A stretch of 64,000 nucleotides of DNA from assembly GCA_900540375.1 (NCBI GenBank), contig UQFS01000014.1:17863-81862 (forward strand), written 5' to 3'. The number at the start of each line of letters is the position of its first letter. The first letter of the stretch is position 1. The notes below the pieces were generated by a model that saw only the letters and a program-made list of their open reading frames with translations, made no database searches and was not told the origin of the DNA. This stretch comes from an uncultured Prevotella sp. Lineage in GTDB: Bacteria; Bacteroidota; Bacteroidia; Bacteroidales; Bacteroidaceae. Below are positions 14,356 through 59,968 of the stretch, piece after piece. A program made the position numbers and the translations under genes.

Positions 14356-14377
14356 GCCTGAATCGTTGTGTCGGGGG

Positions 14378-32305: not shown

Positions 32306-32421
32306 GCGTATATATAAACTTCGGTTGTTGTGGTTTGGATAGGGTTTATTATGGTTTATTAGGGCTGATATTGTCACCCAAGTGTCACCGGAAAGTGTCA
32401 CCTAAAACTAAGTTATGCGAT

Positions 32422-33924: not shown

Positions 33925-33952
33925 GAGGGCAGCCGCAATGGCTGTCCTCTAT
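33925..33952 (-). terminator. Terminator hairpin for the minus-strand gene at 34007-34345
   Basis: On the minus strand gaggacagccattgcggctgccctc is followed by TTTTTTATGCCC. Confidence 0.5.
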
Positions 33953-34006
33953 AAGTAGACGGAAGTAGATGAGTGGGCAGATACTTCCGTCCGGGGGAGG
34001 AAAGAG

Positions 34007-34345: not shown

Positions 34346-34388
34346 CAGCGTATAAGTTATATCAGCGTATAAAGTTAAACTCGTTGTG

Positions 34389-34410
34389 CAAAGGTAAAGC
34401 TTTACCTTTG
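34389..34410. promoter_or_regulatory. Perfect 22-bp palindrome (caaaggtaaag ctttacctttg) between divergent genes; candidate operator
   Basis: Read directly: 11-bp arms with no spacer. Confidence 0.45.
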
Positions 34411-34435
34411 AGCGATAAATTTAAGTTTATACAAT

Positions 34436-34915: not shown

Positions 34916-35008
34916 ATCAAAGCGGATTGTTTTCGTATTCAATTCTGAAACAATACGAAAACAATTCGCCATTCTTTGTTTTTGAATTGAATAAGAATTG
35001 TTTTTCAA

Positions 35009-36448
35009 ATGGCACAGAAAGACGTAACAATCAATGATATTTTGAACGGCGGAAAAGGCTCACCGGGCAATGGAGGCACGACTGCCACCGGCACGACCAG
35101 GGGCACTGACACCACATCGTCGCAACCGCCCGCTACTGGAGGCGGAAGTACCGCCACCCCTCCTGTTGACGGCGCACAAGGTGTTGTTGACTTTGGCAAT
35201 AGTGCGAGTGCGCAGCCAAAGAAGCCTGTAACGACCGCAGAGGCGACCGACCCGACACAAGCCGCCATCAACCTTGTGGAGCAGCAGCAGGCGCAGCAGG
35301 CACCTACGCCTGCCAGCACGGGTAATTTCACACCTAACGTGCAGACCACTACTCATTCCTCCACCGCCTCCACCACCGGTAACACAACCACTTCCACCAC
35401 CGGTAACACCACCACTACCCCCACCGGCAGTAATGGTGATGTTGGCAAGGATAAGGACGCAGCAGCGGTGGACACAGAGCCGCAGGACAGTAAGAAGAAG
35501 TCGGCGATGTCGTATGCTGACATGTTCGCGGCTATGGAGCCATACAAGGAGCCGACCAAGGAAGAGCTGGAGAAGGAGCGGAAGAAGGAGAAGCGTGAGC
35601 GTCTCTTCGCCGCCATCGGCGACGGCATATCGGCACTTAGCAACCTCTTCTTCACTACCCAGTATGCCCCGAATATGTACGACCCCAATAAGGAGACGAA
35701 CAGCGAGCGTGTTGAAAACTACTGGACGAACCTTAAAAAGGAGCGTGAGGCGAACAGGCAGCGTTATGTGGACGGATACATCAAAGCCAAGCAAGCCGAC
35801 GACCTTCACGCCATACAGCAGCAGAATGCCGACGCAGCAGCCGAATGGAAGAAGGCGGACACTGAGCGCAAGAATGCCATTGCCAAGGCACAGGGCGAGG
35901 TGCTTGCAGCCCGTGCAGCCAAAGACCAGTCAGCCGCCGACCTTGCCGCTAAGAAATTGGAGTACCTCATAGCAGGTTGGCCGGAGGAGCAAGCCAAGAA
36001 GCAGGCTGAAATCGACCTGCTGAAAGCAAAGAAAAAGCAGGCTGACGCACAGACGAACAACGCGAATGCCTCAGCAGACGAGCACCGCAGACGTGGAACA
36101 GCGTCGTGGGTAGGCGGCAGTAGCGACAAGGGCGGCAACTCTGGCGGCAAGGGCGGCAAACCTTACGCTACGCTCAACGGTGTGCCCTACGCATCGAAAG
36201 CAGACTACGAGAGAGCGGTTGTCAGCTATGCTAAACAGTATGGCATTCCTTTGCAATATAAGAAGAAGGGCGGTGTTGGTGGAATGACTGAGACGACTAC
36301 CAACAGAACTATTGCCAGCCTTGCCTCGGATGTAGAGGCTCTTTACAGGAAGACACACGCAAAGTCGAAGCCGAATGCACCATCCAAGCCAGCCAAGAAA
36401 GGCGGTGGTGCCAAGGGCGGCAACTGGGCATCAGGGCTTAAATTATAA
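35009..36448 (+). CDS. Hypothetical low-complexity protein (T/N/G-rich N-terminus, central K/E coiled coil, glycine-rich C-terminus)
   Basis: 479 aa. It contains TTGNTTTSTTGNTTTTPTG repeats and the stretch KEELEKERKKEKRER. It lies immediately upstream of the giant gene. Confidence 0.4.
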   Translation: MAQKDVTINDILNGGKGSPGNGGTTATGTTRGTDTTSSQPPATGGGSTATPPVDGAQGVVDFGNSASAQPKKPVTTAEATDPTQAAINLVEQQQAQQAPTPASTGNFTPNVQTTTHSSTASTTGNTTTSTTGNTTTTPTGSNGDVGKDKDAAAVDTEPQDSKKKSAMSYADMFAAMEPYKEPTKEELEKERKKEKRERLFAAIGDGISALSNLFFTTQYAPNMYDPNKETNSERVENYWTNLKKEREANRQRYVDGYIKAKQADDLHAIQQQNADAAAEWKKADTERKNAIAKAQGEVLAARAAKDQSAADLAAKKLEYLIAGWPEEQAKKQAEIDLLKAKKKQADAQTNNANASADEHRRRGTASWVGGSSDKGGNSGGKGGKPYATLNGVPYASKADYERAVVSYAKQYGIPLQYKKKGGVGGMTETTTNRTIASLASDVEALYRKTHAKSKPNAPSKPAKKGGGAKGGNWASGLKL

Positions 36449-36470: not shown

Positions 36471-39400
36471 ATGCCATTAGATAAAGGTAAACTTCAAAAG
36501 TTGTACTCCACTCTCCAGCAGGGCGGATACTCACAGAGCTATGATGAGTTTGAGAAAGGCTTCACGGGTAATGACAACTACCCCAACAGAAAGAAGGTCT
36601 ATGACCTCCTGACCGAGCATGGAGCTAACATCGGTAAAACGTATGAGGACTTCATGGGTAAGATGCAGGCACCGCCTCAGCCTTCCCAGCCTCAGCATCA
36701 GAACACCCCGGCACCGGCTCCTAAGCCTCAGCCGAAGCCAAAGGGCGGCGGCATGACTGCGGCTGAGCGTGCGCAATTCATCCGGAATGCCCAAGGCATT
36801 GTGCATCAAAGTGCAGCCGGACTCCAACGCGCGAAAAACCAGATGGACTATGCCAACAGCAACCGTGGGTTGAAAGTGGACCCCGTGCATTTGGGCCAGA
36901 ACGCGAAGGTAGTCAGGCGACATGTTAACGGCACGGTGGCAAAACCGCGTCCCGTCTTCGATGTTGCTCCTGAACAGCAGCCGGGCGACACCTACTTGAC
37001 CGAGAGCGGCAATGAGTTTGCCAGCCGAGCCGAGGCAGACACCGAGCAGAATGCCGTTGACCAGTATCGCTATGACCAGAGCGAGACCGGGCAGTTGAAT
37101 AATGCCTATGCCGAAGCAGAGAGGCTTGACAAGCTCTTGGAACAGCATGGTAAGGAACTCGACGATGAGAATAGAGACAAATGGTGGCGAGATCTTCCCC
37201 GTGGCGGTGGCGGTGCTGTCAGTACGATGAACGCCAACGACAACAACGGTCGCATGACCGATACCGAATACCTCAATTTATTGGCAGCACGCAAGAAGGT
37301 TGACGAGCAGATTAGAGACCTGAAGGCGGCGCGAGACGAGAAGACAGGCACCTTCCTTGGCGGACTGTGGCGTGGCTTCCGCGACTATGCCTTTGACCCG
37401 TCGAACTGGGACAACGGCTATAGTGACTTGCTGACTACCTCAGCCATGCTCCGTGCAAAGACAGGAGCTGCACAGACACCGAGAGAGAAAGCTTCCGAGC
37501 GCATGATGATGGAGGATACCTACAAGGCAGGTGTTGCAGCTCAGCAGGCAGAAAAGGTGCTTGGCAATGGCTACCGCTTTATGAGGATATGCGCACAGTC
37601 GCTGCCATTCGCACTCCAGTTTATGGCAGGCAATGCAACCGGCATGATAGGCGGGCTGACAAGAGCCGGTGAGGGCATGGGCGTGAAGCTGGCCCGTAAG
37701 ATAGCCATCAAGCAGGGAGCCAACAACATGATGCGCAATATTGGTCGCAGCGTGTTGAAAAATACCGGCGTTGCGCTTGGTGACCTTGGAGCAGCCACTG
37801 CACTTTCAAATACTATTCAAGCAGCACAGACATGGGCTGACATAGGTCATAGATATGCTGGTGATGTTACCTACGACCCTAAAACCGGCGATTATAAGCT
37901 TGAAGGAGGCAAGAGCCTCGGACGTTCTATCTATGAAGGTGAAGCCAATTCTATCATTGAGAACTACACCGAGCAGCTTGGCGAGCACATGCACCTTGGC
38001 AAGTTTGCTTCTTCCGCATTAACGAAGATGGGACTTGGCAGAGTGAGCAACTGGTTTACCAAGGTCGGCAAGAGTGAGTTCATGCAGGGCGTGAACAAAT
38101 ACATGAAGATGGCTAGCTTCAATGGTTATCCGCAAGAAGTGATGGAGGAAGAGGTAGGCATACCCCTTCATGCCATCTTTGACGGTGGAAACAAGATGAG
38201 TGACTTGCTTGACGGCAGGCAGCAACTTGACATCGTAGGCGGCATGCTGTTCTCAATGGCAGGTATGGGCGGTGCGTCGATGGTGATGCAGGGCGGACAT
38301 AAGGCGGCAATGGCAGTCCAGTACCACCAAGACCAACACAAACTCGACAATGCCGATAAGGTAGCGTCGTTCAGGCTCACGGCAGACAAGTGGGCACCCA
38401 TCAAGGAAGAGATTGACGGTACTACCAATGAGGATTTCGGCAAGGTGATGAAGGATGTACTCAGCAATGACGAGCTATCCGACCAAGAGAAGCAAGCCGT
38501 GTGGGACTATGCCCAGCGGCTTGTCATCATGCGTGGGCATAACATGGGTCAGGAGGCTGCTACTCGCAACGGCATGACCGATAAGGAGACCAATGCAGCC
38601 AACGAGAGCTACACACAAGGCTACAACACCACCGACGCAACGGCGATGAACGATGCGAAGAACAGACTGGCAGCTGCTCAGCAGAAGTTCGATGAATATA
38701 TGGAGCAGACGGGCCGCGAGCGTTGGGAAGGTGAACCGAGTATGCAGGACATACAGCATCGTCACCGAGACGCACAGAGTCTATTGAATGACAAGTGGGC
38801 TGACGGCACTCCAGTATATAATGAAAACGACGAGGAATACAAGCTTGCTCAGGCTGTTGTCAATGCCCAGCAGGAGTATGAGGGCATGATGCAGCGTGTG
38901 AGGGACGATATAGACGACGAGGTTCAGCAGACAGGAGCCATCTATGACAGCCGTACGAATGACCAAGGCGTTATTCAGTCGGCGACGCTGAAGGCGCAGA
39001 ACCCGGACGGCACCGACAAGAAGGTGTATATCACCAGCGGCAATGTCGTAATGACCGACGACGGGAAGAGCGTTGACAATCAGAAGAGCGACATGAGTAT
39101 TGTCGTTGTCGATGAGGACGGCAAGGTTCAAATGATTTCTCCTGATGAACTATTCTCCCTTGACACGCCGATAGACGGTGCTCAGGCAAAACAGCAAGCC
39201 ATTGACGCTATCCAGCAGAGCAAGGCGCAGGAAGCCGCAGATAAGATAAACGGCAAGGTCAATCTTACCGCAGGCAACACCTATACCCTTACGGACAACA
39301 CCGGACAGCAGATAGAGGCTACCATCGTTGCTGACGGTCAGACAGGAGCCGTGCAGAACCCTGACGGCACCGTTAACGTGAGCATGAACGGAAAGGTTGT

Positions 39401-42400
39401 GGCCATGGACGTGAACACGTTGCAGCAGATGGTGGACAACACCAACATGCAGAGAACGGCACAAGGCGACGAAGAGGGCGGACAGGAGCAGCCAACAGAG
39501 CAGAAAGGCGACCAAGGCATATTGGACCAAGGCGGCAATGTCGTAGACCTCTCCAACATCGGCGAAAGCGAGGAAGGCGGCGGAACCGTCGTGCAAGGTG
39601 ATGAAGACAGCGGAGCAGTACCGACCTATCCGGGTGGTGTTGTGGCTCCTGATATGTCAGAGCCTCATCAGTGGCAAGTCGATGATACGTTTACCATCGA
39701 CAACGGCGGTATGCCCATACGTGGGCAGGTTACCGGTGTCGGCGAGGACGGTGTGGAGATATACACCGAGAGCCCGGTGAATGGTAAGAAGATGCAGGTT
39801 GTTAGCCCGGAAGAGCTGCAAAGCATGACGACCGAGATTAACGGGGAGACGGTGCAGGCTCCGCAAGATGAAGCCGCTGCAGAGCAGCGGCCTACGGAAC
39901 CCAGCCCTACCGAACAGAGTGGGGTCAATGGGGTGAATGGGGAGCAGGCGCAAGAGCAAGCACCTCAGACACAAGAGCAAGCACAGCCTCAGCAGGCTGA
40001 TGGAGAGCAACCCGCACGAGCCATTGACCGCATACCGTCGCAGCAGATTGATGATGGTAAGGGAAATGTGCGCACAGTGCATAGCTGGGAGCAGGCAGAG
40101 CCGGGAGATACCTATGACGCACTGACAGAGATATACCACGGCAATGCCGACCGTGTGAAGAAAGGCATAGACAACCGTGTCGGCAAGATTGACAAGGCTA
40201 TCAAGGGCGTGCATAAGCAGATGGACGCTATCGACAACAGCGACGACTTCGACGAGGTTGCCGCACAGAGCGAGCAGTACGACCAGCTCCAGCAGCAGAA
40301 AGACGAGTTGGAGAAGCAGAAGAAGTACTGGCAGGGTGTGCAGATGGTACCCCGCAATCGCAAGATGGACGCCGACCGTCGTAGTGCTGAGGAACAGGCA
40401 GCTGCCAAAGCCGCACAGGAGAAGGCGGAAGCCGAGGCCGCTGAGAAAGCCCGTCAGGAGCGTGAGCAGGTGAACGGCGTGCCAAATGTAGTCAATGATA
40501 TACCGGCAGACGCGCGGAAGCGTGGTTTCCGCAATGTGAACGGCATGGTGGTGAACCGACAGGGCGAGACGCAGGGCGTTAGCGGCAGGGAGAGCAATGT
40601 GAAGTTCTCTTCCACCGACACAGCCAAAGGCCACATCAAGGTTATTGATGCTGACGAGCTCCAGCCGTCACACGTCAGCGGACAGCGCAACCCGTCATTC
40701 TTCATCGACGAGGCACAGCCAAAGGACAGAACGGACACTGTATCCGGAATGGCAGCTGCTAAGATTGCAGCTGACCTCAACCCGGAAGAGATAACGGGCG
40801 ACGGCAGTGCCTACCAGTTCAGTGCCCCGACGGTGAACAGCCGTGGTGAGGTCATTCAGGGCAACAACCGCAGTGACGCATTGAAGCTTATGTACTCCAA
40901 TCCAGCCTTCAAACCGGCTCAGGACGCATACAAGCAGTATATCGCCGACCATGCCGAAGAGTTTGGCTTCACTCCTGAGGACGTAGCGAAGATACAGCAG
41001 ATGGAGCACCCGGTGATGGTGAACGAGCTTGACGTGCCTGATGATGAGGCTATCCGCTTAGGCCAGATGAGAGCGAGCGACAACGAAAGTGGCGGCATTG
41101 AGCGTATCGACCCTGTGACGACCTCACAGAAGCTTGACGGCAAGGTGAGCAGCTTTGCCAACGTGTTGCTGTCCTCACCCGACGAGGACGCAAGTCTGAG
41201 CGATGTGCTCATGCAGAACGGAGCCAAGGCAGTGAATTGGCTGGCAACACAGGGAGCTATCAGCGACACGGCTGCACAGAGTGCCTTTGACAAGAAAGGC
41301 AACCTCACGCCTGAGGCACGCATGGACTTGCAGAATATCTTGAAGCAGAGTTTGTTCCAAGGTGGTGTGAGCGACCTGCCCACGATGTTTGACAAGATGC
41401 CCGCCAAGGCGCAGAAAGCTATCCTCTCCACGTTCATGCGCGACTTCGACAGTGCTGAGAGCGAGCGGATATTGCCTGAGATACAGCGAGCCATTGAGGC
41501 ATGGTACGACTGTGCGATGAGCAATGAGGCGTTTGCCAAGGCTTCCAACTACAAAGGAGCCAAGAATGCCATGCACGACTGGGAGCGTCAGACAAACATG
41601 CTTGACGACAACATGCCGTCGGATAAATTCAGTAACTTTGCAAGAGAGCTGGCATGCCGTCTGCAAGGTTGCAGCATGCGCGAGACGCAACAGAGCCTCA
41701 ACGACTTCTTCGACCTTGTGCAGGGCAAGAGCCAAGGTGATTTGTTTGGCGGCACGACAATGGGCGAGCAGGCAGACAGACAAGAGTCTATCCGCCGTAT
41801 TTTCAATATCGAATATAAACCAATAAGCAATGGAAAGACAAGAAGCAATGCTGTGGCTGACAACAGTAGCCAGAGCGGAGAAGGGCGACAAGGAAGCCCA
41901 ACAGATGGTAAGGGACGCGAACGAGCTGAGAGCGGAAGCGGGTCAGCCAACGGTGCAGGAGGAACTGAGAGCCATGATGAGGAAGGCATAAAGGCTACCC
42001 ATGTTGATACCTACGGTCATGGCTCCCGTACAATATATAAAAACCTTAAGACTGGAAAGGTAACTGTAATCTTCGGCGAAGGTGACAAGGCGAACCGTAA
42101 TGGTGGAAAATATAATGTGAGAACCGCTGCGGAGCAGCAACCTACAGAACCGAGCGGGGATAGTAGCCATAGAAACGATAGTAGCCATAGTATAGGATCG
42201 ACTTCTTCATCTGAGAAGAAGGAGACAGAGCGGCAAGGCGTGAACACTGAGCCTACTGAGAAGCAGAAAGAGGCCGGTAACTATAAGAAGGGACATATCA
42301 AGGTTGACGGCTACGACATCACCATTGAGAACCCTAAGGGCAGTACCCGGAGCGACAAGGACGCGTCGGGGAAGGCTTGGAGTGTGCCTATGCACTATGA

Positions 42401-45400
42401 CTACGGCTATATCAAGGGTACTGAGGGCGTTGACGGCGACCATATCGACGTGTACCTGTCAGACAACCCTACGAGCGGCAATGTGTATGTCATTGACCAG
42501 ATAGACCAGAAGACCGGCAAGTTTGACGAGCATAAGGTGATGTACGGTTTTCCATCCAAGGAAGCTGCTGTTGAGGCTTACAAGGGACAGTACGAGAAAG
42601 GCTGGAAAGTTGGCACGGTTACTGAGGTGAGCCGCGAGGACTTCAAGAAGTGGGTGGAGAGCAGCAAACGGAAGACCAAGCCGTTCGGCGAGTATAAGAG
42701 CGTGAAGGAGGCCGCTGTGGAGCGGCAGCCTACACAACCGAGCGCATCAACCGAGCGTACAGAGCAGAAGCAAAAGCGTACTACCACTAAGGGAAAGACG
42801 GAAAAGAACTTTGTCATTGAAATTCAGAACGCCATCGAGGACGATGCAGCCTACGGAAAGTACGACCACAAGCTTACGATGAGCGACATCAAGAAAATGG
42901 CTCAGAAGTATGACTTGCTGAAAGACTACAAGGACACCGACATGCAGGAGCTTGTGGAGAGAGCAATGACACTTGCCACAAGGCAGGTTGCTCAGGCTGA
43001 CATCAATAAGGACGAGCAGACAAAAAAGGCTGGTTTTGACGAGGTTGTAAGACTGTATCAGTCTCAGCCGAGCCTGAACGCGAGAGACACCAGCCGTGTT
43101 GCTCATCAGCAATACTCAACACCTACCCCATTCGGCTATGTGATGGATATGTTCATGATGGGTGGCGATAAGAAGCCGTTGAAGCTGTTGGAGCCGAGCG
43201 CAGGCAACGGAGCGTTGACGATAGGCATCCCGGCACCGCTGTGGCATGTGAACGACATCGACGAGCGCAGACTTATGAACCTCCGTACCATGCCCTACGG
43301 TCGGATAACCAATCAGGACGGCACCATGCCGTTTGAGCCCAAGGCATACGACGCAGTGGCTACCAACCCACCATTCGGCAGTACGCAGGAGAAGGAGTTT
43401 GACGGCGGCAGGACGAAGATAACCAGTCTGGAGGGGCTTATGGCTATTAATGCTCTTGCCTCCATGAAGGACGACGGGCGTGCCGCCATCATCATCGGCG
43501 GCAACACCCAGTATATGAGCAATGGTGCTATGCAGGCCAAGGATATGAAACTGTTCAAGCACCTGTACACCCATTACAACGTCGTTGACGTTATCAACCT
43601 TGACGGCGACATGTACAAGCGCAACGGAACCGGTTACAATGTGCGCATGATACTCATTGCCGGACGCAAGACCGACGTAGGCGACAATCCTGAGAAGTTC
43701 ACCTTCCCACCGGTGAAGAAGAAGGCGCGAGCCGAGCAAGTAAAGACATTCGACGAATTATATAAACGAGTAGAAGATGACATTCAACAAGCTAAGCAAA
43801 TGGAGCGTGAGCCTTCCGCTGCTGTCAACAGTGACGGAAGTCAGCCAGTCAACAGTACGTCAGAGCGTACTGGCAATAGTGAGGCAGCAGGTGGAGTTCA
43901 GCAACAACCCGTACGAGCAGGCGAGATGGAGCGACGTCCACAACCCGGACGGAGTGTACGACCTTCCTCAGCCCAAGACGGACGAGGAAATGGAGAACGA
44001 GGCCAACATGGAAGCGCTGACCGACTGGATAATGCAGACGGACGAGATGCAGGAAGCAATAACACTGTTCAGGGGAACAGACCCACACAAGGGCAATCCT
44101 CAGAACGGCGAGAAGTCGGAAGCACTGGACGAGGAACAGTCGGAGGAAATCAGCGTGGAGGAACTTCTGAACGGAATAACACCACTGGAGAGCGACCCGC
44201 GATAACCAAAAATGCTGAGGCACAGCCTCAGCGTACAGAACCGCGCGCACCACAAGCACCCCGTCAGAAGGTAGAGTTAGGACAGGAGAAAGTAGCCTAT
44301 CCTAACAAGAGCCAGAGCATGACACTTCAAAGCCGTGTGCCAGCCGCACAGGCTGAGGCTATTGCCGAGAACCTTGACAAGCTTGGCGATGTTGACGAGA
44401 TGGTACGCTCAGAGCTTGGCTACAGCAGCAAGGACGAACTGTACTCTCATCTTGCCGCCGAGCAGATAGACAGTGTGGCACTTGCCATCAATCAGATGAA
44501 GCATGGCAAGGGCTTCATTATCGGCGATATGACCGGTGTAGGCAAAGGCAGACAGGGTGCAGCCCTTATCCGCTGGGCTATCAAGCAAGGCAAGACCCCT
44601 ATCTACTTCACTCAGAAGGCACGTCTGTACACGGACAACTACCGTGATATGTGCGATATAGGCAGCAATGGTTTACGTCCGTTCCTTATTGCCTCAAATG
44701 ATGATGGCAATATCGTTGAGAACGTTGTCGATGAGAACGGCAAGAAAGTCTATGACAAGAATGGCGAGCCCGTTACCCGTGTCGTTTACGGACTTCCCAA
44801 GCCCAAGGAGCGTGAGCGTGTCTATGACTACATACTCCAGAACGGCAAGCTGCCACCTGAGTATGACTATGTGCTTGTCACCTACTCTCAGATACAGTCC
44901 GGCACCAAGACCTATGAGATAGGCAAGAATGGTGAAATAGAAGTTAAGGACAAGAAATACAAGGGCAAGACACCCGGTGCTGACAAGAATGGTGATATTC
45001 GCCGTGATGTGCTGGAGACGCTTGCCAAGGACAACTATGTCTTCTTGGACGAGAGCCATACCGTAGGCAGTCAGTCGTCGAGTGGTTTGTACATGCAAGA
45101 CTTGCTCAAAGGTGCAGAGGGAGTAACATATCTTAGTGCCACCTTTGCCAAGCGTCCCGATAACATGCCCCTGTATGCCATGAAGACAGCCATGAGCGAG
45201 AGCGGTCTGAGCCAAAAGGATATGATTGACGCTATCCAGAATGGCGGTGTAACATTGCAGGAAATTATGTCCAAGCAGCTTGTTCAGAGCGGTCAGATGA
45301 TTAGACGTGAGCGTGATTTCACCGGCGTAAGCATTGACTGGGAAGGCGTGGACGAAGAGACCGACAAGCAGCAGCGTGCCCAGTTTGACGAGGTTGCCAA

Positions 45401-48400
45401 GATATACAATGCCATCCGTGAGTTCCAAGACAACTATGTAGACCCGTCTATCGAGAAGATGAGCGAGGACATGGCCGAGGAAGGCATGTTCAGCAAGAAG
45501 ACCCAAGGCACCAGCCACATGGGTGTGAACAATGTCCCCTTTGCCAGCAAGATGTACAATCTTGTCAATCAGCTGTTGTTCTCACTGAAGGCCAATGCCG
45601 TAGCCGATAAAGCCATAGAGTGCTTGAAGAAAGGCGAGAAGCCCGTTATCAGTTTCAACAACACGATGGAAGGCTTCTTGGACGACATGCCGAGGAACAC
45701 CCCAATGCCGGAGCTTCCAAACTTCTCCTTGACTCTGATGAGAGCTTTGGAGGGCACGCTTCGTTATACCGAGGGCGAGGTAGGCAATAAGGACAATCAG
45801 GTCAACAAGACCCTCAACATCAACGACCTTGGCGATGAAGCCGTTGCCAAGTACAACGAGATACGCAAGACCATTCTCAACCTGAGCATAGGCTTGCCCA
45901 TTGACCCTATGGACGCTATCAAGATGCGGATTGAGGCAGCAGGTTACAAGGTAGGTGAGATTACCGGCCGCAAGTCAGAGATGGTGATGGACGCCGAGGG
46001 CAACTATATCGTTCAGAGCCGCAGCAGCAAGGAGATGGACGGCAAGGCCGCCGCCTCTGCCTTCAACAGTGCCAGCGGCAAGAATGGCGGTTTGGACGTA
46101 CTGCTTATCAATAAGAGCGGCAGCACCGGCATCAGCCTCCATGCGAGCAGCAAGTTCAGCGACCAAAGTCCTCGTGTGATGATAGCCGCGCAGTTCCAGA
46201 GCGACATCAACGACGAGGTACAGATGCGCGGCCGTATAGACCGTACCGGGCAGGTTCATCGTGGCAGGTACATCTACTTAGTGAGTTCCATCCCGGCAGA
46301 GCAGCGTTTGCAGATGATGTTCAAGAACAAACTGAAATCGCTTGACGCAAACACCACCTCTTCGCAGAAGTCGAAGTTCAACGAAATGGAAGTTACCGAC
46401 TTCATGAATAAGTACGGCGATGAAGTAACATGGTCGTATATGATGGAGCACCCCGACTTGGAAGATCGCCTTGGCGACCCACTCGACATGCTTTCTGATG
46501 AGAGCAAGAAGAGCAACCGCCGTGGCGGTGATGAAGAGAACAATCCAAACTCAGGTTGTGCCGGAAAGATACTCCGTCGTCTGCCATTCCTCAGCGTTAA
46601 GGAGCAGGAGCAAATCTTCAATGACCTTGCCGACGCATACAAGGTGAAGATGCAGATACTTAACGACGCAGGAGAGAACGACCTTGAAATTACCACCATG
46701 CCACTGAGAGCCGAGACCAAATCAAGGAAGGTTTGGAAACAAGGCTCAGACCCCGGCAGTGATAATGCCTTTGCCGACAATACATATCTGGAGACGGCAG
46801 AAGTGGACGTGCTGAAAAAGCCTATGAAGGCTAAGGAGGCGCGTGAGTATGCCGACCGCCTGACCGACGGCAAACCGTGGGAGCAGTGGCACGAAGAGCA
46901 GCATGAAGCCGTAGAGAAGTTCTATGCAGACAAGGCAAAAGCCGTTGAGGATAAGGCGAAAGCCGAGGCACAGAAGCGCATTAACAAAGCCCGTGAGGAC
47001 TATATCAAAGGTTGCCTGAAAGCCCGTAAGAAAGGTGACAACAACTGGAGTGACGAAGAGATAAGCCACATGGCAGATATTGCCGCAAAGGAAGCCGCCG
47101 ACAAGGAGCAGACGAAGATTAACAAGCGTACCGTGAGCATAGACGCACAGCGCAACGACGTATTGGGAGCATTGGACGCCTTCACTCCTTTGGAACCGTT
47201 AATCATCCCTCTGAACTTAAAGGACACGAGCACGACCGTTATTCCGAGCCTTGGCACCTTCCTTGGTATCAAGTTCGGCAAAGGTTATTCCCGTTCATCC
47301 TCAACGGCAGTGTTTGCCACCCTTGACGGACGCAGAAAGATTGAAGTGCCCCTTAGCGATAAGACAAGCCTTGAAAACATCAAGCACCAAAGCGTGATGT
47401 TGGGTTATCAGGCCCGTGGCCTCAGCATGGACAACTGGGATAGCAAGGTACCAACAAAGAGCCGCAAGACCGCATACATCGTAACCGGTAACTTGATGCA
47501 GGCACTTGTAGATACTCAGAAATCTCCGGAGACCAAAGGTCAGCTTATCAGCTATACGACCATTGACGGTGATGTCAAGCAAGGTATTCTGATGAATGAC
47601 CGCTTCAAAGAAGAGGACTTAAAGACCAGCGTTCCCATCAGTGCCATGCTGCAAAAGATTATCGACGGCGACGCCGTTGAGAGTGCTGACAAAGAAGTCA
47701 AGATAGAGCGTGGCATGTCGTACCACTATAACGACTTCAAGCTGAGCGTCCCCAAATCGAAGTCTCGTGGCGGCAAGTACTTCTTGGATAAGAAACTTCT
47801 GAGGCTACTCGATGACGAGTTCACCACCAGCGGCAGCAACATGACCGCTTGGGTCAGCCAGCAGAACCTTAAGAAAGTACTTGACTATCTGAGCAAGACC
47901 CTTGGCGTTACCGTACAGGTGAAAGCCAACCTTGAAGAGACAGCGGACAGTCCACATAATGACGAACCTGGCACCCCATCAGAGGCTGAGGAAGGTGGCG
48001 TGCTGTACAGAGAAGTTGACGACGAAGAGGCAGCGAGACTTGACAGCGAGCCGACGGTTAAGGTGTACCGAGCCATGCAGGAGCACGACGGTAAGCTCTA
48101 TCCACCGATGAGTGGCAGGGTGAAGACACAGGTTGAGACAAAGAAAGGCACCCTGCGCACGAAGTGGGTATGGCGTAGTCCTATAGAGATTGGCAAGTGG
48201 GAGCAGAGCGAGGAATACCCAGAGATGGCTAATGAAGACGGAACCTTTACCCTTGACAAGGGCAACGGCAGCACCATCAACGCAGCCTACAATCCGTATA
48301 TCCACACTTCACGCACCCCCATCAACGACCAGTTCTCATCAGCATGGAACAGACCAAAACTTGTTACCGTAGAGGTGGAAGTCCCGGTTAGCGAGCTTAC

Positions 48401-51400
48401 GAGCGGTTATCATGCTGAGAAGGCAAAGGACTCGACGGGCGAGGTAGAATGGAAGTCCGGTCCCGTCGGCAGAGAGATGGCGGCACAGGGCAATCCTCGA
48501 ATGGTTATTTTGAGCCGTTGGGATAAGCCTGTACGCATTGTACCTGTAGATGAAGTTGCCGATGAGTATGCCGTCAGGCTGGCAGGGACGGGGATAAAGG
48601 TACCGTTCAACACCGTGCCACCTGCACTTAGAGACGCGCTTGTTGCAAGAGGCGTTGAGATTAGCGAGCCTGAGGAAGGCAATGCAGGAAAGGCGAGCCG
48701 TCCGAGCTATGAAGAGTGGCTGAAAGGCAATACCCGTCGTCGTGAGGGCAGTGGAGCCTATAGCGATGAAGAATTATCGCTGATGAACGACCCTGTAGCG
48801 AAATGGCTTGGCAAGAGCAACCGCACCAAGGCACAGCAGAAAGCCTTTGCCAACAGAGAGCGCAAGAGCATGGAGAGTGCCGCAAAGGAGCTGGCTGATA
48901 GGCTTCACCTTGACAACGTGAATATCGTGATGGACGCATCCACGCTGGAGGGCAGAAAGGCACGTGCCAAAGGTTTCTATGACCGCAACACGAATGAGAT
49001 AACCATCGTTATTCCTAACCACCGTGATATTGACGACGTGATGCAGACCTTGCTCCATGAAGGCGTGGCGCACTACGGACTGAGGAAGATGTTCGGCAGC
49101 CACTTCGACATGTTCCTTGACAACGTGTATGCAGCCGCCGACAACGATGTGCGCAGGCGGATCACGGAGTTGGCACTGAGCAAGTACGGTGGCGACTTCC
49201 GTGTGGCTACTGAGGAATATCTTGCAAGCCTTGCAGAGCAGACCGACTTCGAGCACATACCCGAGACCTTCTGGCAGAAGATAAAGGACTTTTTCCTTGA
49301 TATGCTTCATGCCATTGGCTTTGCGGACTTTGCCGATAAGTATGACTTTACCCTGTCGGACAACGAGCTGAGGTATATCCTTTGGCGTAGCTATGAGAAC
49401 CTGAAGGAGCCGGGACGGTACCGCAGCATCTTAGGTGAGGCTGAGGACGTGGCAAAGCAGGCAGAGCTACAAGTTGGTAACTATGCACCTGAAAGCCTTG
49501 ACAGCAGTGATAACCGTGTAGCAGAGGCAAGTCCAAAGCTATCATCTGTAAAAAATGAGTTCGGCAAGCCATTTGTACTTTCTTCAAAGGGAAGTATAGA
49601 CATGGGATTTATTGATAAGGCTTCAGGTCTTAAAGAGGCTCCTATCAGACTTAGCGAAGGTGAAGATATTGTTGACGAAGATGGAAAGCACCATGGATAT
49701 GGGCTTCTGCATATTGCAGCAGAGCATGAAGGAGAAATACGCAATGCCAGCTATAACTCTGTCGAAGAGTTTGTTGAAGACGTAGCCAGCAATTACAACA
49801 CAATCCGTGAGGGCAATGTTGTTGCTAATAACCAAACCTACCTTGTTGAATTGACAGACAAGCACAACAATACATTGTATGTCGAACTTTCAAGAGACGG
49901 GAAGTACTGGAATATAAATAGCGCAGGAGTATTCCGTAAAGGCTATTCAAAGAATAAAAAGGAAGTCTACTCCCGACCCGCAATCGGTAGCAGTTCCGGC
50001 ACTCGAACTGCTGGAGTTAATCACGGCGTTAATAATAGTGCCACCGTCACCAGCGGGAACTCTCCTTTGACTTCCAATGCAAAGATAGGGAATAATTCCG
50101 AAAGAGGTGTCAATAATTCCGAAAATGTTTCGGAACCGAAGTCATGGGGCAAGCAAGACCTTATGAGCAAGGCAGAGCAGATAAGTAATGGCATTGAGCC
50201 GGATTTACTGTTCAGAGACACTATAGAAGATGATGATAACACGGCAAGGGAGACTTACGACCGATGGGCAGACCAAGCAAAGGAGCAGTTTCGTGAGGCT
50301 TGGCAAGACTCCATGATTAACGTCAGGAACCTGCAGGAGGCAGTATTGAAACAGCGTGGCGAGAAGTTAGAGCCATACGAGGATGCATACAACGAGGAAA
50401 ACCGCAGCCACGGCATAGGACAGGATAAGAGTGAGTATTTCACTGACAACCTCTATAAGCCGTTGATTGCATCTGTGAACGAAGCAGCCAAAAAGGCGAA
50501 GGTAAGCATTGGCGATGTTACAACGTATATGATGGCTAAGCACGGACTGGAGCGAAACGAAGCATTCGCAAAGAGAGACGCTGACGCAGCATGGACCAAG
50601 TACCAAGAGAAGCAGAAAGCGAAGTTCGACGAATACCAGAAGGCGCACCCCAACGGCAAGCAGACTCTAGCTGATTTCATAAAGAAGAGCTATGACGACT
50701 TCTACAATGATTATCGTGAGAAGGACTATAGCGGACTGACCTCACTCACCGATACCGACAATGTGCAGGACGCTGAGGCAGAAGCACAGCGCATCATAGC
50801 CGATATGGAGAGGAAAACCGACACCAAAGACATATGGGATAAAGTGAACGCTGCAACAAAGTGGACGCTGCATCAGGCTCACGAGAGCGGTATCATCAGC
50901 AGGGACAACTACCAGAGCGTGAAAGATATGTTCAAATACTACATTCCTCTGCGTGGTTGGAACGAGGACACGGCTGGGGACATCTATGACTATGTTGGCA
51001 GTGCCAAGGGAACGGCGTTCTCACCGACACTCGCCAAAGCAAAAGGGCGAAAAAGCCAGGCTGACAATCCTATTGCCTATATAGGCAGCATGGGAATAAG
51101 CGCAATCATACAGGGTGAGAGAAACAGGGTGAAGCAAGCCTTCATGCGGTTTGCAGAGAACCACCCGACAAACCTTGTAATGGTGAGTGAGATGTGGTAC
51201 AGGAACTTCGGCACAGACACCGCCCCCGATTGGCGTGAGGACGTGCCGAACATTCCCGAGAACACATCAGCCGACCAAGTGGCAGCCATTGTGGAGCAGC
51301 ACGAAAAGGACATGAAGGCTTTGGAGGCACAAGGGCTTGCTACCAAGAGACGTGGCAGGCTTCACCTTGGCGTGCCAATAAAGCCGAAAGAGGCTACAGA

Positions 51401-53354
51401 GCACCACGTAGAGGTGATGCTCAACGGAAAGAAATATGTACTCTATATCAACGGCAACCCCCGTGCAGCACAGGCACTTAACGGCACGAGGGCAAAGAGG
51501 GCACAAGAACACAGCACCACTGCAAAGCTTGATGATATAGCCAAGAACTTTGAGGATATGCACAACTGGATTGGAAGAAGGCTTGCATCCCTTACACGAA
51601 TGCTTGCCCATGGCCAAAGATGGATGGGCGCACGCTTCACCAGCAAGAACCCGGCGTTCATTCTCAGTAATGCTATGCGAGACGTGGATATGGCACTTGC
51701 CTCTACCGCCATAAAGGAAAGCCCGATGTACGCCTTGCGTTTCCGCCTGAACTTAGCAAGACTTGTGGGACCGGTGCGCATGCTTGGATTGAAGCACTGG
51801 TATGAGAACTACCGTGCAGCAGGCGGCAATAGTGCAGGACTGACAGGCTTGAAGAAATACTTCTATGAGTTCAATGCTGGTGGCGCACGTACAGGCTTCA
51901 CGTCGCTAAAGGATATCAAAGATTACAAGAAAGAAATTGAGAAGATGGTCAAGCAGTCGCAACAGTCGGTTGTCAATCCAAGACGATGGCTTCGTGTACT
52001 TGGCGATGGTTTCGAGTTTGCCAACAGCGCTGTTGAAGACATGACACGTTTCGCTACGTTCATGGCTTCAAGGCAAAGCGGACGCACAGTGAGGGAAAGC
52101 GTAACAGACGCAAAGAACATCACGCTGAACTTCAACCGAAAGGGCAGCGGAGAAATGGGCAACGCCACAATCAGGGAGATGCAGATATTCGTCAACCCTG
52201 CCATTCAATCATTGCAAACGATAGCCAGTCTGGCTACGCACCACCCTGTCAAATTCTCTGCTTACACAGCATTGAGAGTCTTGATAGGTATCGGTACGCC
52301 TTTCGCTACGTCACTCCTTTGGAGCATCTTCGGTGGTGGTAACGGTGATGATGACGACTGGAACGCAGAGGATGAATACTGGAAGCTGCCTACATGGACA
52401 CGCCGTTCTAACTTCGTGTGCTGGATACCGGGGACTCACAAATTTCTGATGATACCACTGGCTCAGGAGTTCCGTGTCATGAACGGCTTTGGCGAGACAA
52501 TTGCAAGTGCCATGACAGGTAACAGCGACGAGAACCCTGCATTGGAGATGTTAAGTCAGACATCAGGTCTGCTTCCTATAGACTTCACAGGTAACGGCAA
52601 CAATCCGTTTATCACCCTTTCGCCGACCATCATACAACCGCTGATGCAGATTCGCTTCAATACAGATTTCACTGGCAGACCAATATACAAGGACAGCGAG
52701 TGGAACAAATACGAGCCGGCATCGCAGAAGGCATATATCGGCACTCCGGGCGAGCTTGTAGACTGGTCGGCTAAGATAAACAATCATACGGGCGGTAACG
52801 AGCACAAGCAAGGCTGGTGGGAGCGGACGCTTGCTGGCAAGTATGCCAACAACCCTGCCATTGTTGACCATTTTCTGAAGGGCTATTACGGAGGATTATA
52901 CTCGTTCATTGCGCAGCTCGGAGGTCTCGCCTTCCATGCTTACAACGGTGAGTCTCCGGACGTGCAGGAAATACCAATGGCAAACCGCCTAGTCACTGCG
53001 CCTAGGGAAAAGTTGCAGAACGGCAAGATGAAGATGCCTGTCTGGTATTATGATATGCTGGACGACAACAAGCGCTACATGGACGAGGTGAACGGCTACC
53101 GCAAGGACATGCTTGCCAATAAGCCGGGAGCCGAGAAGCACTTCATGGAAATGACCAAGACGGACGAGTTCATGAAGCAGCAACAGGTCAATGCGCTGAT
53201 GAACGGTATCAACCAGATACGAGCGGCAATGCCTACCGTGGAAAATTCTCAAAATGACGAGGACGCCAAGACCAAGCAAGAGCTTGAGGGCGGTATAAAG
53301 GAGATACTCTCAGAACTTGAAAAGATAAGGAAAACGGGTAAGCCGTTGGAGTAA
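36471..53354 (+). CDS. Giant polyvalent protein (5,627 aa) with ParB-like, pyrophosphatase-like, N6-adenine methyltransferase, SNF2-family helicase and HExxH zincin modules
   Basis: One uninterrupted 16,884-nt ORF. It contains ParB-like ...VIQGNNRSDAL, PPase-like YGYIKGTEGVDGDHIDV, MTase LLEPSAGNGALT ... VATNPPFG, helicase GDMTGVGKGRQ / LDESHTV / LSATF / GSTGISLHA / QMRGRIDRTGQ, and zincin LLHEGVAHYG. Only short antisense ORFs overlap it. Confidence 0.85.
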   Translation: MPLDKGKLQKLYSTLQQGGYSQSYDEFEKGFTGNDNYPNRKKVYDLLTEHGANIGKTYEDFMGKMQAPPQPSQPQHQNTPAPAPKPQPKPKGGGMTAAERAQFIRNAQGIVHQSAAGLQRAKNQMDYANSNRGLKVDPVHLGQNAKVVRRHVNGTVAKPRPVFDVAPEQQPGDTYLTESGNEFASRAEADTEQNAVDQYRYDQSETGQLNNAYAEAERLDKLLEQHGKELDDENRDKWWRDLPRGGGGAVSTMNANDNNGRMTDTEYLNLLAARKKVDEQIRDLKAARDEKTGTFLGGLWRGFRDYAFDPSNWDNGYSDLLTTSAMLRAKTGAAQTPREKASERMMMEDTYKAGVAAQQAEKVLGNGYRFMRICAQSLPFALQFMAGNATGMIGGLTRAGEGMGVKLARKIAIKQGANNMMRNIGRSVLKNTGVALGDLGAATALSNTIQAAQTWADIGHRYAGDVTYDPKTGDYKLEGGKSLGRSIYEGEANSIIENYTEQLGEHMHLGKFASSALTKMGLGRVSNWFTKVGKSEFMQGVNKYMKMASFNGYPQEVMEEEVGIPLHAIFDGGNKMSDLLDGRQQLDIVGGMLFSMAGMGGASMVMQGGHKAAMAVQYHQDQHKLDNADKVASFRLTADKWAPIKEEIDGTTNEDFGKVMKDVLSNDELSDQEKQAVWDYAQRLVIMRGHNMGQEAATRNGMTDKETNAANESYTQGYNTTDATAMNDAKNRLAAAQQKFDEYMEQTGRERWEGEPSMQDIQHRHRDAQSLLNDKWADGTPVYNENDEEYKLAQAVVNAQQEYEGMMQRVRDDIDDEVQQTGAIYDSRTNDQGVIQSATLKAQNPDGTDKKVYITSGNVVMTDDGKSVDNQKSDMSIVVVDEDGKVQMISPDELFSLDTPIDGAQAKQQAIDAIQQSKAQEAADKINGKVNLTAGNTYTLTDNTGQQIEATIVADGQTGAVQNPDGTVNVSMNGKVVAMDVNTLQQMVDNTNMQRTAQGDEEGGQEQPTEQKGDQGILDQGGNVVDLSNIGESEEGGGTVVQGDEDSGAVPTYPGGVVAPDMSEPHQWQVDDTFTIDNGGMPIRGQVTGVGEDGVEIYTESPVNGKKMQVVSPEELQSMTTEINGETVQAPQDEAAAEQRPTEPSPTEQSGVNGVNGEQAQEQAPQTQEQAQPQQADGEQPARAIDRIPSQQIDDGKGNVRTVHSWEQAEPGDTYDALTEIYHGNADRVKKGIDNRVGKIDKAIKGVHKQMDAIDNSDDFDEVAAQSEQYDQLQQQKDELEKQKKYWQGVQMVPRNRKMDADRRSAEEQAAAKAAQEKAEAEAAEKARQEREQVNGVPNVVNDIPADARKRGFRNVNGMVVNRQGETQGVSGRESNVKFSSTDTAKGHIKVIDADELQPSHVSGQRNPSFFIDEAQPKDRTDTVSGMAAAKIAADLNPEEITGDGSAYQFSAPTVNSRGEVIQGNNRSDALKLMYSNPAFKPAQDAYKQYIADHAEEFGFTPEDVAKIQQMEHPVMVNELDVPDDEAIRLGQMRASDNESGGIERIDPVTTSQKLDGKVSSFANVLLSSPDEDASLSDVLMQNGAKAVNWLATQGAISDTAAQSAFDKKGNLTPEARMDLQNILKQSLFQGGVSDLPTMFDKMPAKAQKAILSTFMRDFDSAESERILPEIQRAIEAWYDCAMSNEAFAKASNYKGAKNAMHDWERQTNMLDDNMPSDKFSNFARELACRLQGCSMRETQQSLNDFFDLVQGKSQGDLFGGTTMGEQADRQESIRRIFNIEYKPISNGKTRSNAVADNSSQSGEGRQGSPTDGKGRERAESGSGSANGAGGTESHDEEGIKATHVDTYGHGSRTIYKNLKTGKVTVIFGEGDKANRNGGKYNVRTAAEQQPTEPSGDSSHRNDSSHSIGSTSSSEKKETERQGVNTEPTEKQKEAGNYKKGHIKVDGYDITIENPKGSTRSDKDASGKAWSVPMHYDYGYIKGTEGVDGDHIDVYLSDNPTSGNVYVIDQIDQKTGKFDEHKVMYGFPSKEAAVEAYKGQYEKGWKVGTVTEVSREDFKKWVESSKRKTKPFGEYKSVKEAAVERQPTQPSASTERTEQKQKRTTTKGKTEKNFVIEIQNAIEDDAAYGKYDHKLTMSDIKKMAQKYDLLKDYKDTDMQELVERAMTLATRQVAQADINKDEQTKKAGFDEVVRLYQSQPSLNARDTSRVAHQQYSTPTPFGYVMDMFMMGGDKKPLKLLEPSAGNGALTIGIPAPLWHVNDIDERRLMNLRTMPYGRITNQDGTMPFEPKAYDAVATNPPFGSTQEKEFDGGRTKITSLEGLMAINALASMKDDGRAAIIIGGNTQYMSNGAMQAKDMKLFKHLYTHYNVVDVINLDGDMYKRNGTGYNVRMILIAGRKTDVGDNPEKFTFPPVKKKARAEQVKTFDELYKRVEDDIQQAKQMEREPSAAVNSDGSQPVNSTSERTGNSEAAGGVQQQPVRAGEMERRPQPGRSVRPSSAQDGRGNGERGQHGSADRLDNADGRDAGSNNTVQGNRPTQGQSSERREVGSTGRGTVGGNQRGGTSERNNTTGERPAITKNAEAQPQRTEPRAPQAPRQKVELGQEKVAYPNKSQSMTLQSRVPAAQAEAIAENLDKLGDVDEMVRSELGYSSKDELYSHLAAEQIDSVALAINQMKHGKGFIIGDMTGVGKGRQGAALIRWAIKQGKTPIYFTQKARLYTDNYRDMCDIGSNGLRPFLIASNDDGNIVENVVDENGKKVYDKNGEPVTRVVYGLPKPKERERVYDYILQNGKLPPEYDYVLVTYSQIQSGTKTYEIGKNGEIEVKDKKYKGKTPGADKNGDIRRDVLETLAKDNYVFLDESHTVGSQSSSGLYMQDLLKGAEGVTYLSATFAKRPDNMPLYAMKTAMSESGLSQKDMIDAIQNGGVTLQEIMSKQLVQSGQMIRRERDFTGVSIDWEGVDEETDKQQRAQFDEVAKIYNAIREFQDNYVDPSIEKMSEDMAEEGMFSKKTQGTSHMGVNNVPFASKMYNLVNQLLFSLKANAVADKAIECLKKGEKPVISFNNTMEGFLDDMPRNTPMPELPNFSLTLMRALEGTLRYTEGEVGNKDNQVNKTLNINDLGDEAVAKYNEIRKTILNLSIGLPIDPMDAIKMRIEAAGYKVGEITGRKSEMVMDAEGNYIVQSRSSKEMDGKAAASAFNSASGKNGGLDVLLINKSGSTGISLHASSKFSDQSPRVMIAAQFQSDINDEVQMRGRIDRTGQVHRGRYIYLVSSIPAEQRLQMMFKNKLKSLDANTTSSQKSKFNEMEVTDFMNKYGDEVTWSYMMEHPDLEDRLGDPLDMLSDESKKSNRRGGDEENNPNSGCAGKILRRLPFLSVKEQEQIFNDLADAYKVKMQILNDAGENDLEITTMPLRAETKSRKVWKQGSDPGSDNAFADNTYLETAEVDVLKKPMKAKEAREYADRLTDGKPWEQWHEEQHEAVEKFYADKAKAVEDKAKAEAQKRINKAREDYIKGCLKARKKGDNNWSDEEISHMADIAAKEAADKEQTKINKRTVSIDAQRNDVLGALDAFTPLEPLIIPLNLKDTSTTVIPSLGTFLGIKFGKGYSRSSSTAVFATLDGRRKIEVPLSDKTSLENIKHQSVMLGYQARGLSMDNWDSKVPTKSRKTAYIVTGNLMQALVDTQKSPETKGQLISYTTIDGDVKQGILMNDRFKEEDLKTSVPISAMLQKIIDGDAVESADKEVKIERGMSYHYNDFKLSVPKSKSRGGKYFLDKKLLRLLDDEFTTSGSNMTAWVSQQNLKKVLDYLSKTLGVTVQVKANLEETADSPHNDEPGTPSEAEEGGVLYREVDDEEAARLDSEPTVKVYRAMQEHDGKLYPPMSGRVKTQVETKKGTLRTKWVWRSPIEIGKWEQSEEYPEMANEDGTFTLDKGNGSTINAAYNPYIHTSRTPINDQFSSAWNRPKLVTVEVEVPVSELTSGYHAEKAKDSTGEVEWKSGPVGREMAAQGNPRMVILSRWDKPVRIVPVDEVADEYAVRLAGTGIKVPFNTVPPALRDALVARGVEISEPEEGNAGKASRPSYEEWLKGNTRRREGSGAYSDEELSLMNDPVAKWLGKSNRTKAQQKAFANRERKSMESAAKELADRLHLDNVNIVMDASTLEGRKARAKGFYDRNTNEITIVIPNHRDIDDVMQTLLHEGVAHYGLRKMFGSHFDMFLDNVYAAADNDVRRRITELALSKYGGDFRVATEEYLASLAEQTDFEHIPETFWQKIKDFFLDMLHAIGFADFADKYDFTLSDNELRYILWRSYENLKEPGRYRSILGEAEDVAKQAELQVGNYAPESLDSSDNRVAEASPKLSSVKNEFGKPFVLSSKGSIDMGFIDKASGLKEAPIRLSEGEDIVDEDGKHHGYGLLHIAAEHEGEIRNASYNSVEEFVEDVASNYNTIREGNVVANNQTYLVELTDKHNNTLYVELSRDGKYWNINSAGVFRKGYSKNKKEVYSRPAIGSSSGTRTAGVNHGVNNSATVTSGNSPLTSNAKIGNNSERGVNNSENVSEPKSWGKQDLMSKAEQISNGIEPDLLFRDTIEDDDNTARETYDRWADQAKEQFREAWQDSMINVRNLQEAVLKQRGEKLEPYEDAYNEENRSHGIGQDKSEYFTDNLYKPLIASVNEAAKKAKVSIGDVTTYMMAKHGLERNEAFAKRDADAAWTKYQEKQKAKFDEYQKAHPNGKQTLADFIKKSYDDFYNDYREKDYSGLTSLTDTDNVQDAEAEAQRIIADMERKTDTKDIWDKVNAATKWTLHQAHESGIISRDNYQSVKDMFKYYIPLRGWNEDTAGDIYDYVGSAKGTAFSPTLAKAKGRKSQADNPIAYIGSMGISAIIQGERNRVKQAFMRFAENHPTNLVMVSEMWYRNFGTDTAPDWREDVPNIPENTSADQVAAIVEQHEKDMKALEAQGLATKRRGRLHLGVPIKPKEATEHHVEVMLNGKKYVLYINGNPRAAQALNGTRAKRAQEHSTTAKLDDIAKNFEDMHNWIGRRLASLTRMLAHGQRWMGARFTSKNPAFILSNAMRDVDMALASTAIKESPMYALRFRLNLARLVGPVRMLGLKHWYENYRAAGGNSAGLTGLKKYFYEFNAGGARTGFTSLKDIKDYKKEIEKMVKQSQQSVVNPRRWLRVLGDGFEFANSAVEDMTRFATFMASRQSGRTVRESVTDAKNITLNFNRKGSGEMGNATIREMQIFVNPAIQSLQTIASLATHHPVKFSAYTALRVLIGIGTPFATSLLWSIFGGGNGDDDDWNAEDEYWKLPTWTRRSNFVCWIPGTHKFLMIPLAQEFRVMNGFGETIASAMTGNSDENPALEMLSQTSGLLPIDFTGNGNNPFITLSPTIIQPLMQIRFNTDFTGRPIYKDSEWNKYEPASQKAYIGTPGELVDWSAKINNHTGGNEHKQGWWERTLAGKYANNPAIVDHFLKGYYGGLYSFIAQLGGLAFHAYNGESPDVQEIPMANRLVTAPREKLQNGKMKMPVWYYDMLDDNKRYMDEVNGYRKDMLANKPGAEKHFMEMTKTDEFMKQQQVNALMNGINQIRAAMPTVENSQNDEDAKTKQELEGGIKEILSELEKIRKTGKPLE

Positions 53355-59932: not shown

Positions 59933-59968
59933 TTTTAGCCTTATGTTGCTGAAAGTAGATTATTTGCA

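Follow-up and report, generated by a model that had tools for sequence, protein, structure and literature searches.

What is a segment resembling inorganic pyrophosphatases (PPases) doing inside a single protein of 5,627 amino acids (aa)? The question is raised by a stretch of DNA from an uncultured Prevotella sp. (GCA_900540375.1, contig UQFS01000014.1, positions 17,863-81,862 of the forward strand), whose 64,000 nucleotides (nt) are referred to here as the window. All nucleotide coordinates follow the numbering of the window, amino acid numbers are those of the giant open reading frame (ORF), and residues of the E. coli PPase are given in mature numbering. A sequence-only reading of the window had placed a PPase-like module at 42280-42670 and called it unusual; it could hydrolyze pyrophosphate (PPi) or a nucleotide-derived signal. 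The segment is an ordinary member of the InPase family (PF18823), a shortened offshoot of the family I soluble inorganic pyrophosphatases that ranks among the standard modules of phage polyvalent proteins. The two features at issue are:

36471..53354, + strand: giant ORF of 5,627 aa, a stop-free single frame encoding a phage-type polyvalent protein that carries the InPase module
42258..42659, + strand: InPase domain (aa 1930-2063), envelope of the PF18823 match

Frame 1 of the window holds the InPase peptide without interruption. The peptide, coordinates and residue numbers of the sequence-only reading are correct, all lying in the frame of the giant ORF: ENPKGS starts at aa 1953 (nt 42327), DGDHIDV occupies aa 1988-1994 (nt 42432-42452), and KGWKVGTVTEV occupies aa 2043-2053 (nt 42597-42629). 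The isolated segment matches the PF18823 'InPase' model over its entire length (model positions 1-135 of 135; E = 1.2e-56, 190.7 bits, cut-off 26.8), the match is reproduced when larger chunks of the giant ORF are scanned, and the envelope almost exactly matches the 42280-42670 of the earlier reading. Against PF00719, the classic family I model, the segment scores 13.0 bits, below the cut-off of 23.5 (E = 0.091), over query residues 47-71 only, which span the DYGY...DGDxxD block. Membership of the pyrophosphatase family thus falls below the cut-off with the classic profile, whereas it stands far above it with the dedicated one and is recovered at 93% probability by profile-profile alignment (below). 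An NCBIfam scan of the module gave no family match, and it is only by the dedicated PF18823 model that the PPase kinship is easily detected.

For the more distant comparison, a family alignment of 61 homologues, whose identity to the window copy ranges from 43% to 89%, was set against a PPase alignment of nine sequences, namely the E. coli and M. tuberculosis Ppa, checked to be identical to PDB chains 4UM4_A and 4Z70_A, and seven database relatives. The PPase profile is shallow because the best 120 matches of the E. coli Ppa homologue search, made for a diverse profile, were all 82-99% identical. Hhalign related the two profiles with a probability of 93% (E = 3.6e-7), confidently over 54 columns. 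Searched against the PDB as a single sequence, the module retrieved M. tuberculosis and other PPases at E ~0.05, and with the 61-homologue profile PPases made up most of a weak match list (E 0.006-0.8). The AlphaFold2 model built on the family alignment had a mean predicted local distance difference test (pLDDT) score of 88.6 and a predicted template modeling score (pTM) of 0.83; the Foldseek matches of this model in the PDB, although weak, were nearly all family I PPases (best E = 9e-4, template modeling score (TM) 0.42). Because of the PF18823, PDB, hhalign, AlphaFold2 and Foldseek results, the module is regarded as a genuine, strongly diverged relative of the family I PPases that has their fold, and the homology proposed from sequence stands. 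The alternative that the resemblance arose by chance, from motif matches within a giant ORF of low complexity, would find some comfort in PF00719 taken alone (E = 0.09) and in a C-terminal motif match no better than shuffled sequence. It is nevertheless practically negligible and is ruled out by the PF18823 score (E of 1e-56), the 93% profile-profile probability, fold searches that return PPases almost exclusively, and a homologue count of 10,048 representatives at E <= 1e-10.

The family I PPases (PF00719; E. coli Ppa, M. tuberculosis Rv3628) consist of a barrel and two C-terminal helices, which follow in the same order in the module. As had been noted from sequence, the module is shorter than standalone PPases, with ~135 aa versus 162-176 aa. 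By HMMER and hhalign sequence alignment, deletions of ~9 residues relative to the M. tuberculosis and E. coli PPases fall between the equivalents of E20 and Y55, and the loop equivalent to E. coli ~110-126 is missing. Classic PPases are free oligomeric enzymes, whereas the module lies inside the 5,627-aa protein.

The active site of the E. coli PPase comprises E20, K29, E31, R43, Y55, D65, D67, D70, D97, D102, K104, Y141 and K142. In family I PPases, K29, Y55 and K104, together with the metals, hold the attacked phosphate, and R43, Y141 and K142 hold the leaving phosphate. The corresponding segments of the module, with two family-specific ones, are:

42252..42296, + strand: N-terminal motif PTEKQKEAGNYKKGH (aa 1928-1942), family-specific, directly before the first strand
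42327..42350, + strand: ENPKGSTR (E1953, R1960), which both HMMER and hhalign place on IEIPxx of PPases
42399..42452, + strand: DYGYIKGTEGVDGDHIDV (Y1978; D1988, D1990, D1993), the block of highest alignment confidence to classic PPases
42525..42536, + strand: DEHK (D2019, E2020, H2021, K2022), second acidic cluster plus Lys, with D94, E95 and K97 (domain numbering) in 61 of 61 homologues
42669..42707, + strand: basic C-terminal tail RKTKPFGEYKSVK (aa 2067-2079), just outside the Pfam envelope

Fourteen domain positions are invariant in all 61 homologues: Y13, E28, R35, Y53, G54, D63, D68, Q85, D94, E95, K97, A108, Y112 and F133. The putative Asp/Glu metal ligands E28, D63, D68, D94 and E95 are among them, and 59 of 61 homologues have D65; the window copy keeps every one of these acidic positions. 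E1953 (domain E28) is firmly aligned with E. coli E20, Y1978 (Y53) with Y55, and D1988, D1990 and D1993 (D63, D65, D68) with D65, D67 and D70. R1960 (R35) lies near K29, two positions before its column, and K1968 (K43; Lys in 37 of 61) aligns with R43. In the second acidic cluster, the spacing of E-x-K is identical to that of E. coli D102-A103-K104, and extended or relaxed hhalign runs place E95 on D102 and K97 on K104, with near-zero confidence in this C-terminal half; E95-x-K97 would correspond to D102-x-K104 by inference. Counterparts of E20, Y55, D65, D67, D70 and, on this alignment, K104 are present in the module, with D/E-x-K for D102-x-K104, and the metal-activated water chemistry is presumably common to both.

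Other parts of the classic site are changed. The column of E. coli E31 (domain position 37) is Gly in 57 of the 61 homologues, and K142 is not conserved either, the K142-like position being Leu in 37 of 61. Unlike most homologues, the window copy has Asp at the E31 column (aa 1962, nt 42354-42356). DGDHIDV had been described as a near match to the PPase signature, which we take to be D-[SGDN]-D-[PE]-[LIVMF]-D-[LIVMGAC], with His where Pro or Glu is expected; position 4 is indeed the sole departure, which leaves the signature unmatched, and in the 61 homologues it is held mostly by His (H 43, A 9, E 4). Of the three E. coli motif equivalences drawn in the sequence-only reading, both HMMER and hhalign recover EIPANAD and the second motif. 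The third sets KGWKVG... against KGKWVKVEGW; it was not recovered by hhalign, and 920 of 2,000 shuffles scored equally well or better in a local alignment of the C-terminal parts. This third equivalence, which would make Y2037/K2038 the Y141/K142 pair, is appealing to the eye and fits the secondary-structure order of the AlphaFold2 model; on the shuffles it was rejected as not significant. Read through the known roles of PPase residues, the equivalences would leave the metal site and the attacked-phosphate site in place and the leaving-group side altered.

Two elements set the family apart from classic PPases. The N-terminal motif has the consensus PTEAQKEAGNY(K/R)KGH, or PTExQKEAGNY(K/R)KGH with the fourth position left free. 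Its Y13 is invariant, conservation reaches 90% or more at G11, N12, K15 and H17, and the motif is kept in the giant homologues and has no counterpart in classic PPases. The GNY residues, with pLDDT <50, are the sole low-confidence part of the core model, and HMMER alignments to the Pa193 portal fusion (discussed below) begin only after GNYKKGH. The basic tail is conserved as RKTKPFxEYKSV in distant giant homologues and in the same portal fusion.

The domain was given its own section, 'The InPase domain', by Iyer, Burroughs, Anand, de Souza and Aravind in 2017 (J Bacteriol, PMC5512222). These authors described InPase domains as relatives of type I PPases in which four acidic residues are conserved, and as a distinct form without the beta-hairpin insert located after the first core strand. 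They reported InPase-portal fusions such as BcepF1.124, found related InPase domains near Nudix, GNAT and TmrB genes, and proposed that the domain either processes a nucleotide-like substrate produced during infection or clears PPi to favor early replication and transcription. The functional hypotheses of the sequence-only reading are those of Iyer et al. 2017. The domain, its PPase kinship, its shortened form, its location in giant and portal proteins and both functional hypotheses have thus been published since 2017 and are in Pfam. A literature search for experimental work on PF18823/InPase after 2017 found none, returning only the 2017 comparative paper and unrelated work. The window copy shares with the described family the full-length hidden Markov model match, the shortened form, the conserved acidic residues and the host architecture, a phage-type polyvalent protein with DdrB-ParB and LPD38. 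It departs from it in the Asp at domain position 37 and in lineage-specific QPTEPS-type linkers that bracket the domain; nothing of substance differs.

Nor is the setting rare. That a PPase-like module in such a protein is unusual, as first supposed, is not supported in view of the 2017 description, the phage matches given below and an exhaustive HMMER search of 1.84 billion cluster representatives, which yielded 11,490 proteins at E <= 1e-3. Among the best 150 of these, 119 reach a length of 2,000 aa or more and 98 one of 3,000 aa or more (median 3,996, maximum 7,091), and in representative homologues InPase usually lies 1,200-2,300 residues from the N-terminus. GTDB species-representative genomes hold at least 375 confirmed InPase loci; among the best 80, 58 have the domain in an open frame of 3,000 codons or more, a lower bound since the flanks were limited to 10 kb. 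InPase matches fall within eleven PHROG families, some of them annotated as 'DarB-like antirestriction', 'virion structural protein' or 'minor head protein'. The InPase model is matched by 24 viral proteins of BFVD at E <= 1e-3, with TM up to 0.86, and several BFVD/UniProt viral homologues are already named 'Inorganic pyrophosphatase domain-containing protein'.

Isolated phage genomes with an InPase match number 461, of which 293 are Pseudomonas phages. Among the Pseudomonas matches listed, all have the extent of the Pa193 portal fusion (17/18-148), and the annotated ones are minor head, portal or virion proteins. In the portal fusions of Pbunavirus and related phages (Pa193 gp19, PDB 9B41; BcepF1 gp124), the same domain belongs to a virion protein and lies at the portal C-terminus (aa 636-763 of 765 in Pa193), not embedded in a polyvalent protein. 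The window InPase is 43% identical to the Pa193 copy (E = 9e-28 as a single sequence, 1.6e-49 with the profile). Pa193 gp19 is the sole PDB entry containing an InPase sequence, and according to the authors of 9B41 its residues 529-765 have no density in the cryo-electron microscopy map, which leaves the InPase clade without an experimental structure.

The protein around the module comprises the following further features, in order along the chain:

aa 498-611 of the giant ORF, + strand: weak LPD14 match, Pfam scan
~39876-39920, + strand: third copy of the linker repeat (aa 1136-1150), repeat search of the ORF
40620..41027, + strand: ddrB-like ParB domain (aa 1384-1519), PF18763 E = 3.4e-22, upstream neighbor of InPase
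42126..42155, + strand: upstream linker repeat AAEQQPTEPS (aa 1886-1895), repeat search of the ORF
42711..42743, + strand: downstream linker repeat AAVERQPTQPS (aa 2081-2091), repeat search of the ORF
within 43335..46694, + strand: N6-adenine methylase-like region with an NPPF motif (aa ~2289-2447), PF02384 (N6_Mtase) E = 9.6e-4, below cut-off
within 43335..46694, + strand: Strawberry-notch-like superfamily 2 helicase (aa ~2660-3408), AAA_34 PF13872 E = 2.3e-19 and Helicase_C_4 PF13871 E = 1e-24
~49671-49895, + strand: weak PBECR1 match (Barnase/EndoU/colicin-like nuclease; aa ~4401-4475), E = 0.003-0.008, below cut-off
52368..52979, + strand: LPD38 domain (aa 5300-5503), PF18857 E = 7.4e-28, a marker of phage-type polyvalent proteins

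Several unrelated conflict-related domains are thus joined in one chain, among them the phage-specific DdrB-ParB, InPase and LPD38, and by its domain content the ORF has the architecture of a phage-type polyvalent protein. InPase, DdrB-ParB and LPD38 are confined to polyvalent proteins of this type (Iyer et al. 2017, PMC5512222). The methylase-like region followed by the helicase (43335..46694, + strand) forms a DarB-like core, and the InPase segment itself matches inside the 4,647-position profile of phrog_10089, 'DarB-like antirestriction'. P1 DarB and DarB-like proteins (phrog_10089) are large, capsid-packaged proteins that likewise combine an N6-methylase and a helicase. P1 DarB, a methylase-helicase of ~2,255 aa, has no InPase module, and in the giant ORF the chain extends beyond the DarB-like core. 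Its C-terminal third also contains a segment, LLHEGVAHYGLRKMF, with H-E-x-x-x-H spacing, not the zincin HExxH, for which no Pfam match was found.

The linker repeat of ~11 aa, A-A-(A/V)-E-(Q/R)-(Q/R)-P-T-(E/Q)-P-S, occurs in three copies in the giant ORF that are ~80% alike over 33 nt, two of which exactly bracket the InPase module. In the closest relatives (P0122-P0125, L001), and not in distant ones, it sits where modules join. It could serve for proteolytic processing, or as a recombination junction at which modules are shuffled. The relative L001 (Logan ERR4562048_664, 1497-17613) is 82-93% identical over most modules and 68-70% in the N-terminal and distal segments. Its module order is that of the window, but the sequence is split into seven consecutive or overlapping ORFs with diverging ends, which suggests frameshifts or assembly errors; stop-codon reassignment was rejected in view of the overlap between the ORFs and the sequence divergence at their ends. 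Right after InPase, L001 carries an extra 714-aa module with a MutS_I match that is absent from the window protein. Across 80 related loci (L003-L082; tblastn, E <= 1e-5), InPase is present in all 80 at 54-91% identity, whereas the ParB module of the window is detectable in 15 and the methylase-helicase in 8-9, which points to extensive module shuffling around a conserved InPase. Seven giant homologues (P0141, P0148, P0176, P0195, P0201, P0214 and P0240) each have two stretches matching the InPase query, which suggests tandem or duplicated modules.

The genes on either side of the giant ORF include:

32335-33561, upstream: tyrosine integrase with an Arm-DNA-binding domain
34436-34915, upstream: 159-aa ORF, T7 gp14-like (PF24072 E = 1.4e-5, below cut-off)
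within 32335-36448, upstream: 479-aa ORF
within 54152-62607, downstream: NYN-domain ORF (phrog_5783)
55035-57089, downstream: P22-like portal
57420-59534, minus strand, downstream: large terminase
61093-62607, downstream: SU10-like major capsid protein

The giant gene comes after the T7 gp14-like ORF and the 479-aa ORF, the position of an internal or ejection protein, and by its gene content the element is a podovirus-like prophage in which the giant gene appears to occupy that slot. Its nearest genomic relatives are Prevotella and other Bacteroidales, and its host is probably Prevotella or another of the Bacteroidales. When the whole giant ORF was compared by megablast with 50,697 phage records, no match was found, so no close isolated relative is available for comparison. 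The ORFs upstream of the integrase and the two that precede the giant gene gave nothing useful in PHROG scans. Upstream of the integrase, a 1,493-aa ORF (21680-26161, minus strand) has no PHROG match, and a tRNA-Asp at 1445-1519 lies far from the integrase. PHROG annotations of InPase homologues name virion proteins; from these and from the position of the gene we infer that the giant protein would be packaged in the capsid and ejected into the host.

What, then, might the module do? Judging from its conserved residues, it is quite likely an active, divalent-metal-dependent phosphoanhydride hydrolase. As in PPases, metals bound by Asp and Glu would activate a water molecule for attack on a phosphate held by Lys, Arg and Tyr; Glu1953, Arg1960, Tyr1978 and Lys2022 would position this phosphate, and a P-O-P anhydride would be cleaved. 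The giant protein would carry InPase in the capsid, and the module would act in the host cell early after DNA ejection. Its retention in 80 of 80 loci while its neighbors are shuffled argues for an enzyme whose target is a small molecule common to all hosts. PPi is the default substrate. A larger substrate is also considered because the leaving-group side is remodeled and an invariant extra motif is present, and because, as we reason, a few injected molecules would add little to the host PPase; PPi and a bulkier, nucleotide-derived (nucleoside-polyphosphate) substrate appear about equally likely. A non-catalytic, structural or binding role, for which the PPase-like fold would have been retained, could be targeting or anchoring of the protein near the portal in the capsid, or phosphate or Mg2+ binding on DNA. 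It would be suited mainly by the portal fusions: portal proteins stay behind when the DNA is ejected, so that a domain at their C-terminus may never enter the cell, and 293 of the 461 matching phages are Pseudomonas phages, those listed having the portal-fusion extent. The flexible or disordered state of the Pa193 region in the map and the moderate fold similarity to PPases would also suit such a role. We consider such a role improbable, since the metal- and phosphate-site residues are invariant in 61 homologues at 43-89% identity, an enzyme-like pattern, and portal fusions have been read as a packaging and delivery route (PMC5512222).

Within the hydrolase reading, a variant that differs in substrate alone makes the module an anti-defense enzyme, in which PPase chemistry would be turned on a nucleotide-derived immune signal, an alarmone or the nucleotide pool; possible substrates are (p)ppGpp, a derivative of ADP-ribose, or an oligonucleotide, linear or cyclic, that bears a polyphosphate group. 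The altered part of the pocket is the side that binds the leaving phosphate in classic PPases: the E20-Y55 loop is shortened, the E31 column is mostly Gly (57 of 61), the K142-like position is often Leu (37 of 61), and GNY(K/R)KGH is an invariant addition. The host protein is full of counter-defense modules, related InPase domains occur near Nudix, GNAT and TmrB genes (PMC5512222), and a few injected molecules would, in our reasoning, suit a rare signal better than millimolar PPi. We nonetheless hold this variant to be somewhat unlikely. The attacked-phosphate site and the metal ligands are those of a plain PPase, and high conservation in phages of distant hosts would need a signal common to all of them. 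No anti-defense enzyme is known to have a PPase fold, and literature searches found none.

As a sequence finding, the window copy adds nothing new, being an ordinary PF18823 member in an ordinary phage polyvalent protein. Its interest lies in the family, which is abundant and unusually conserved and for which no substrate assay or resolved structure was found in the searchable literature. The identity of the substrate would tell whether phages inject a PPase to favor early nucleotidyl transfer or to destroy a host signal. If the module were an anti-signal enzyme, it would represent a new fold among the phage enzymes known to degrade immune signals, one that more than 10,000 protein clusters contain, and the GNY(K/R)KGH motif and the remodeled leaving-group pocket would give it specificity.

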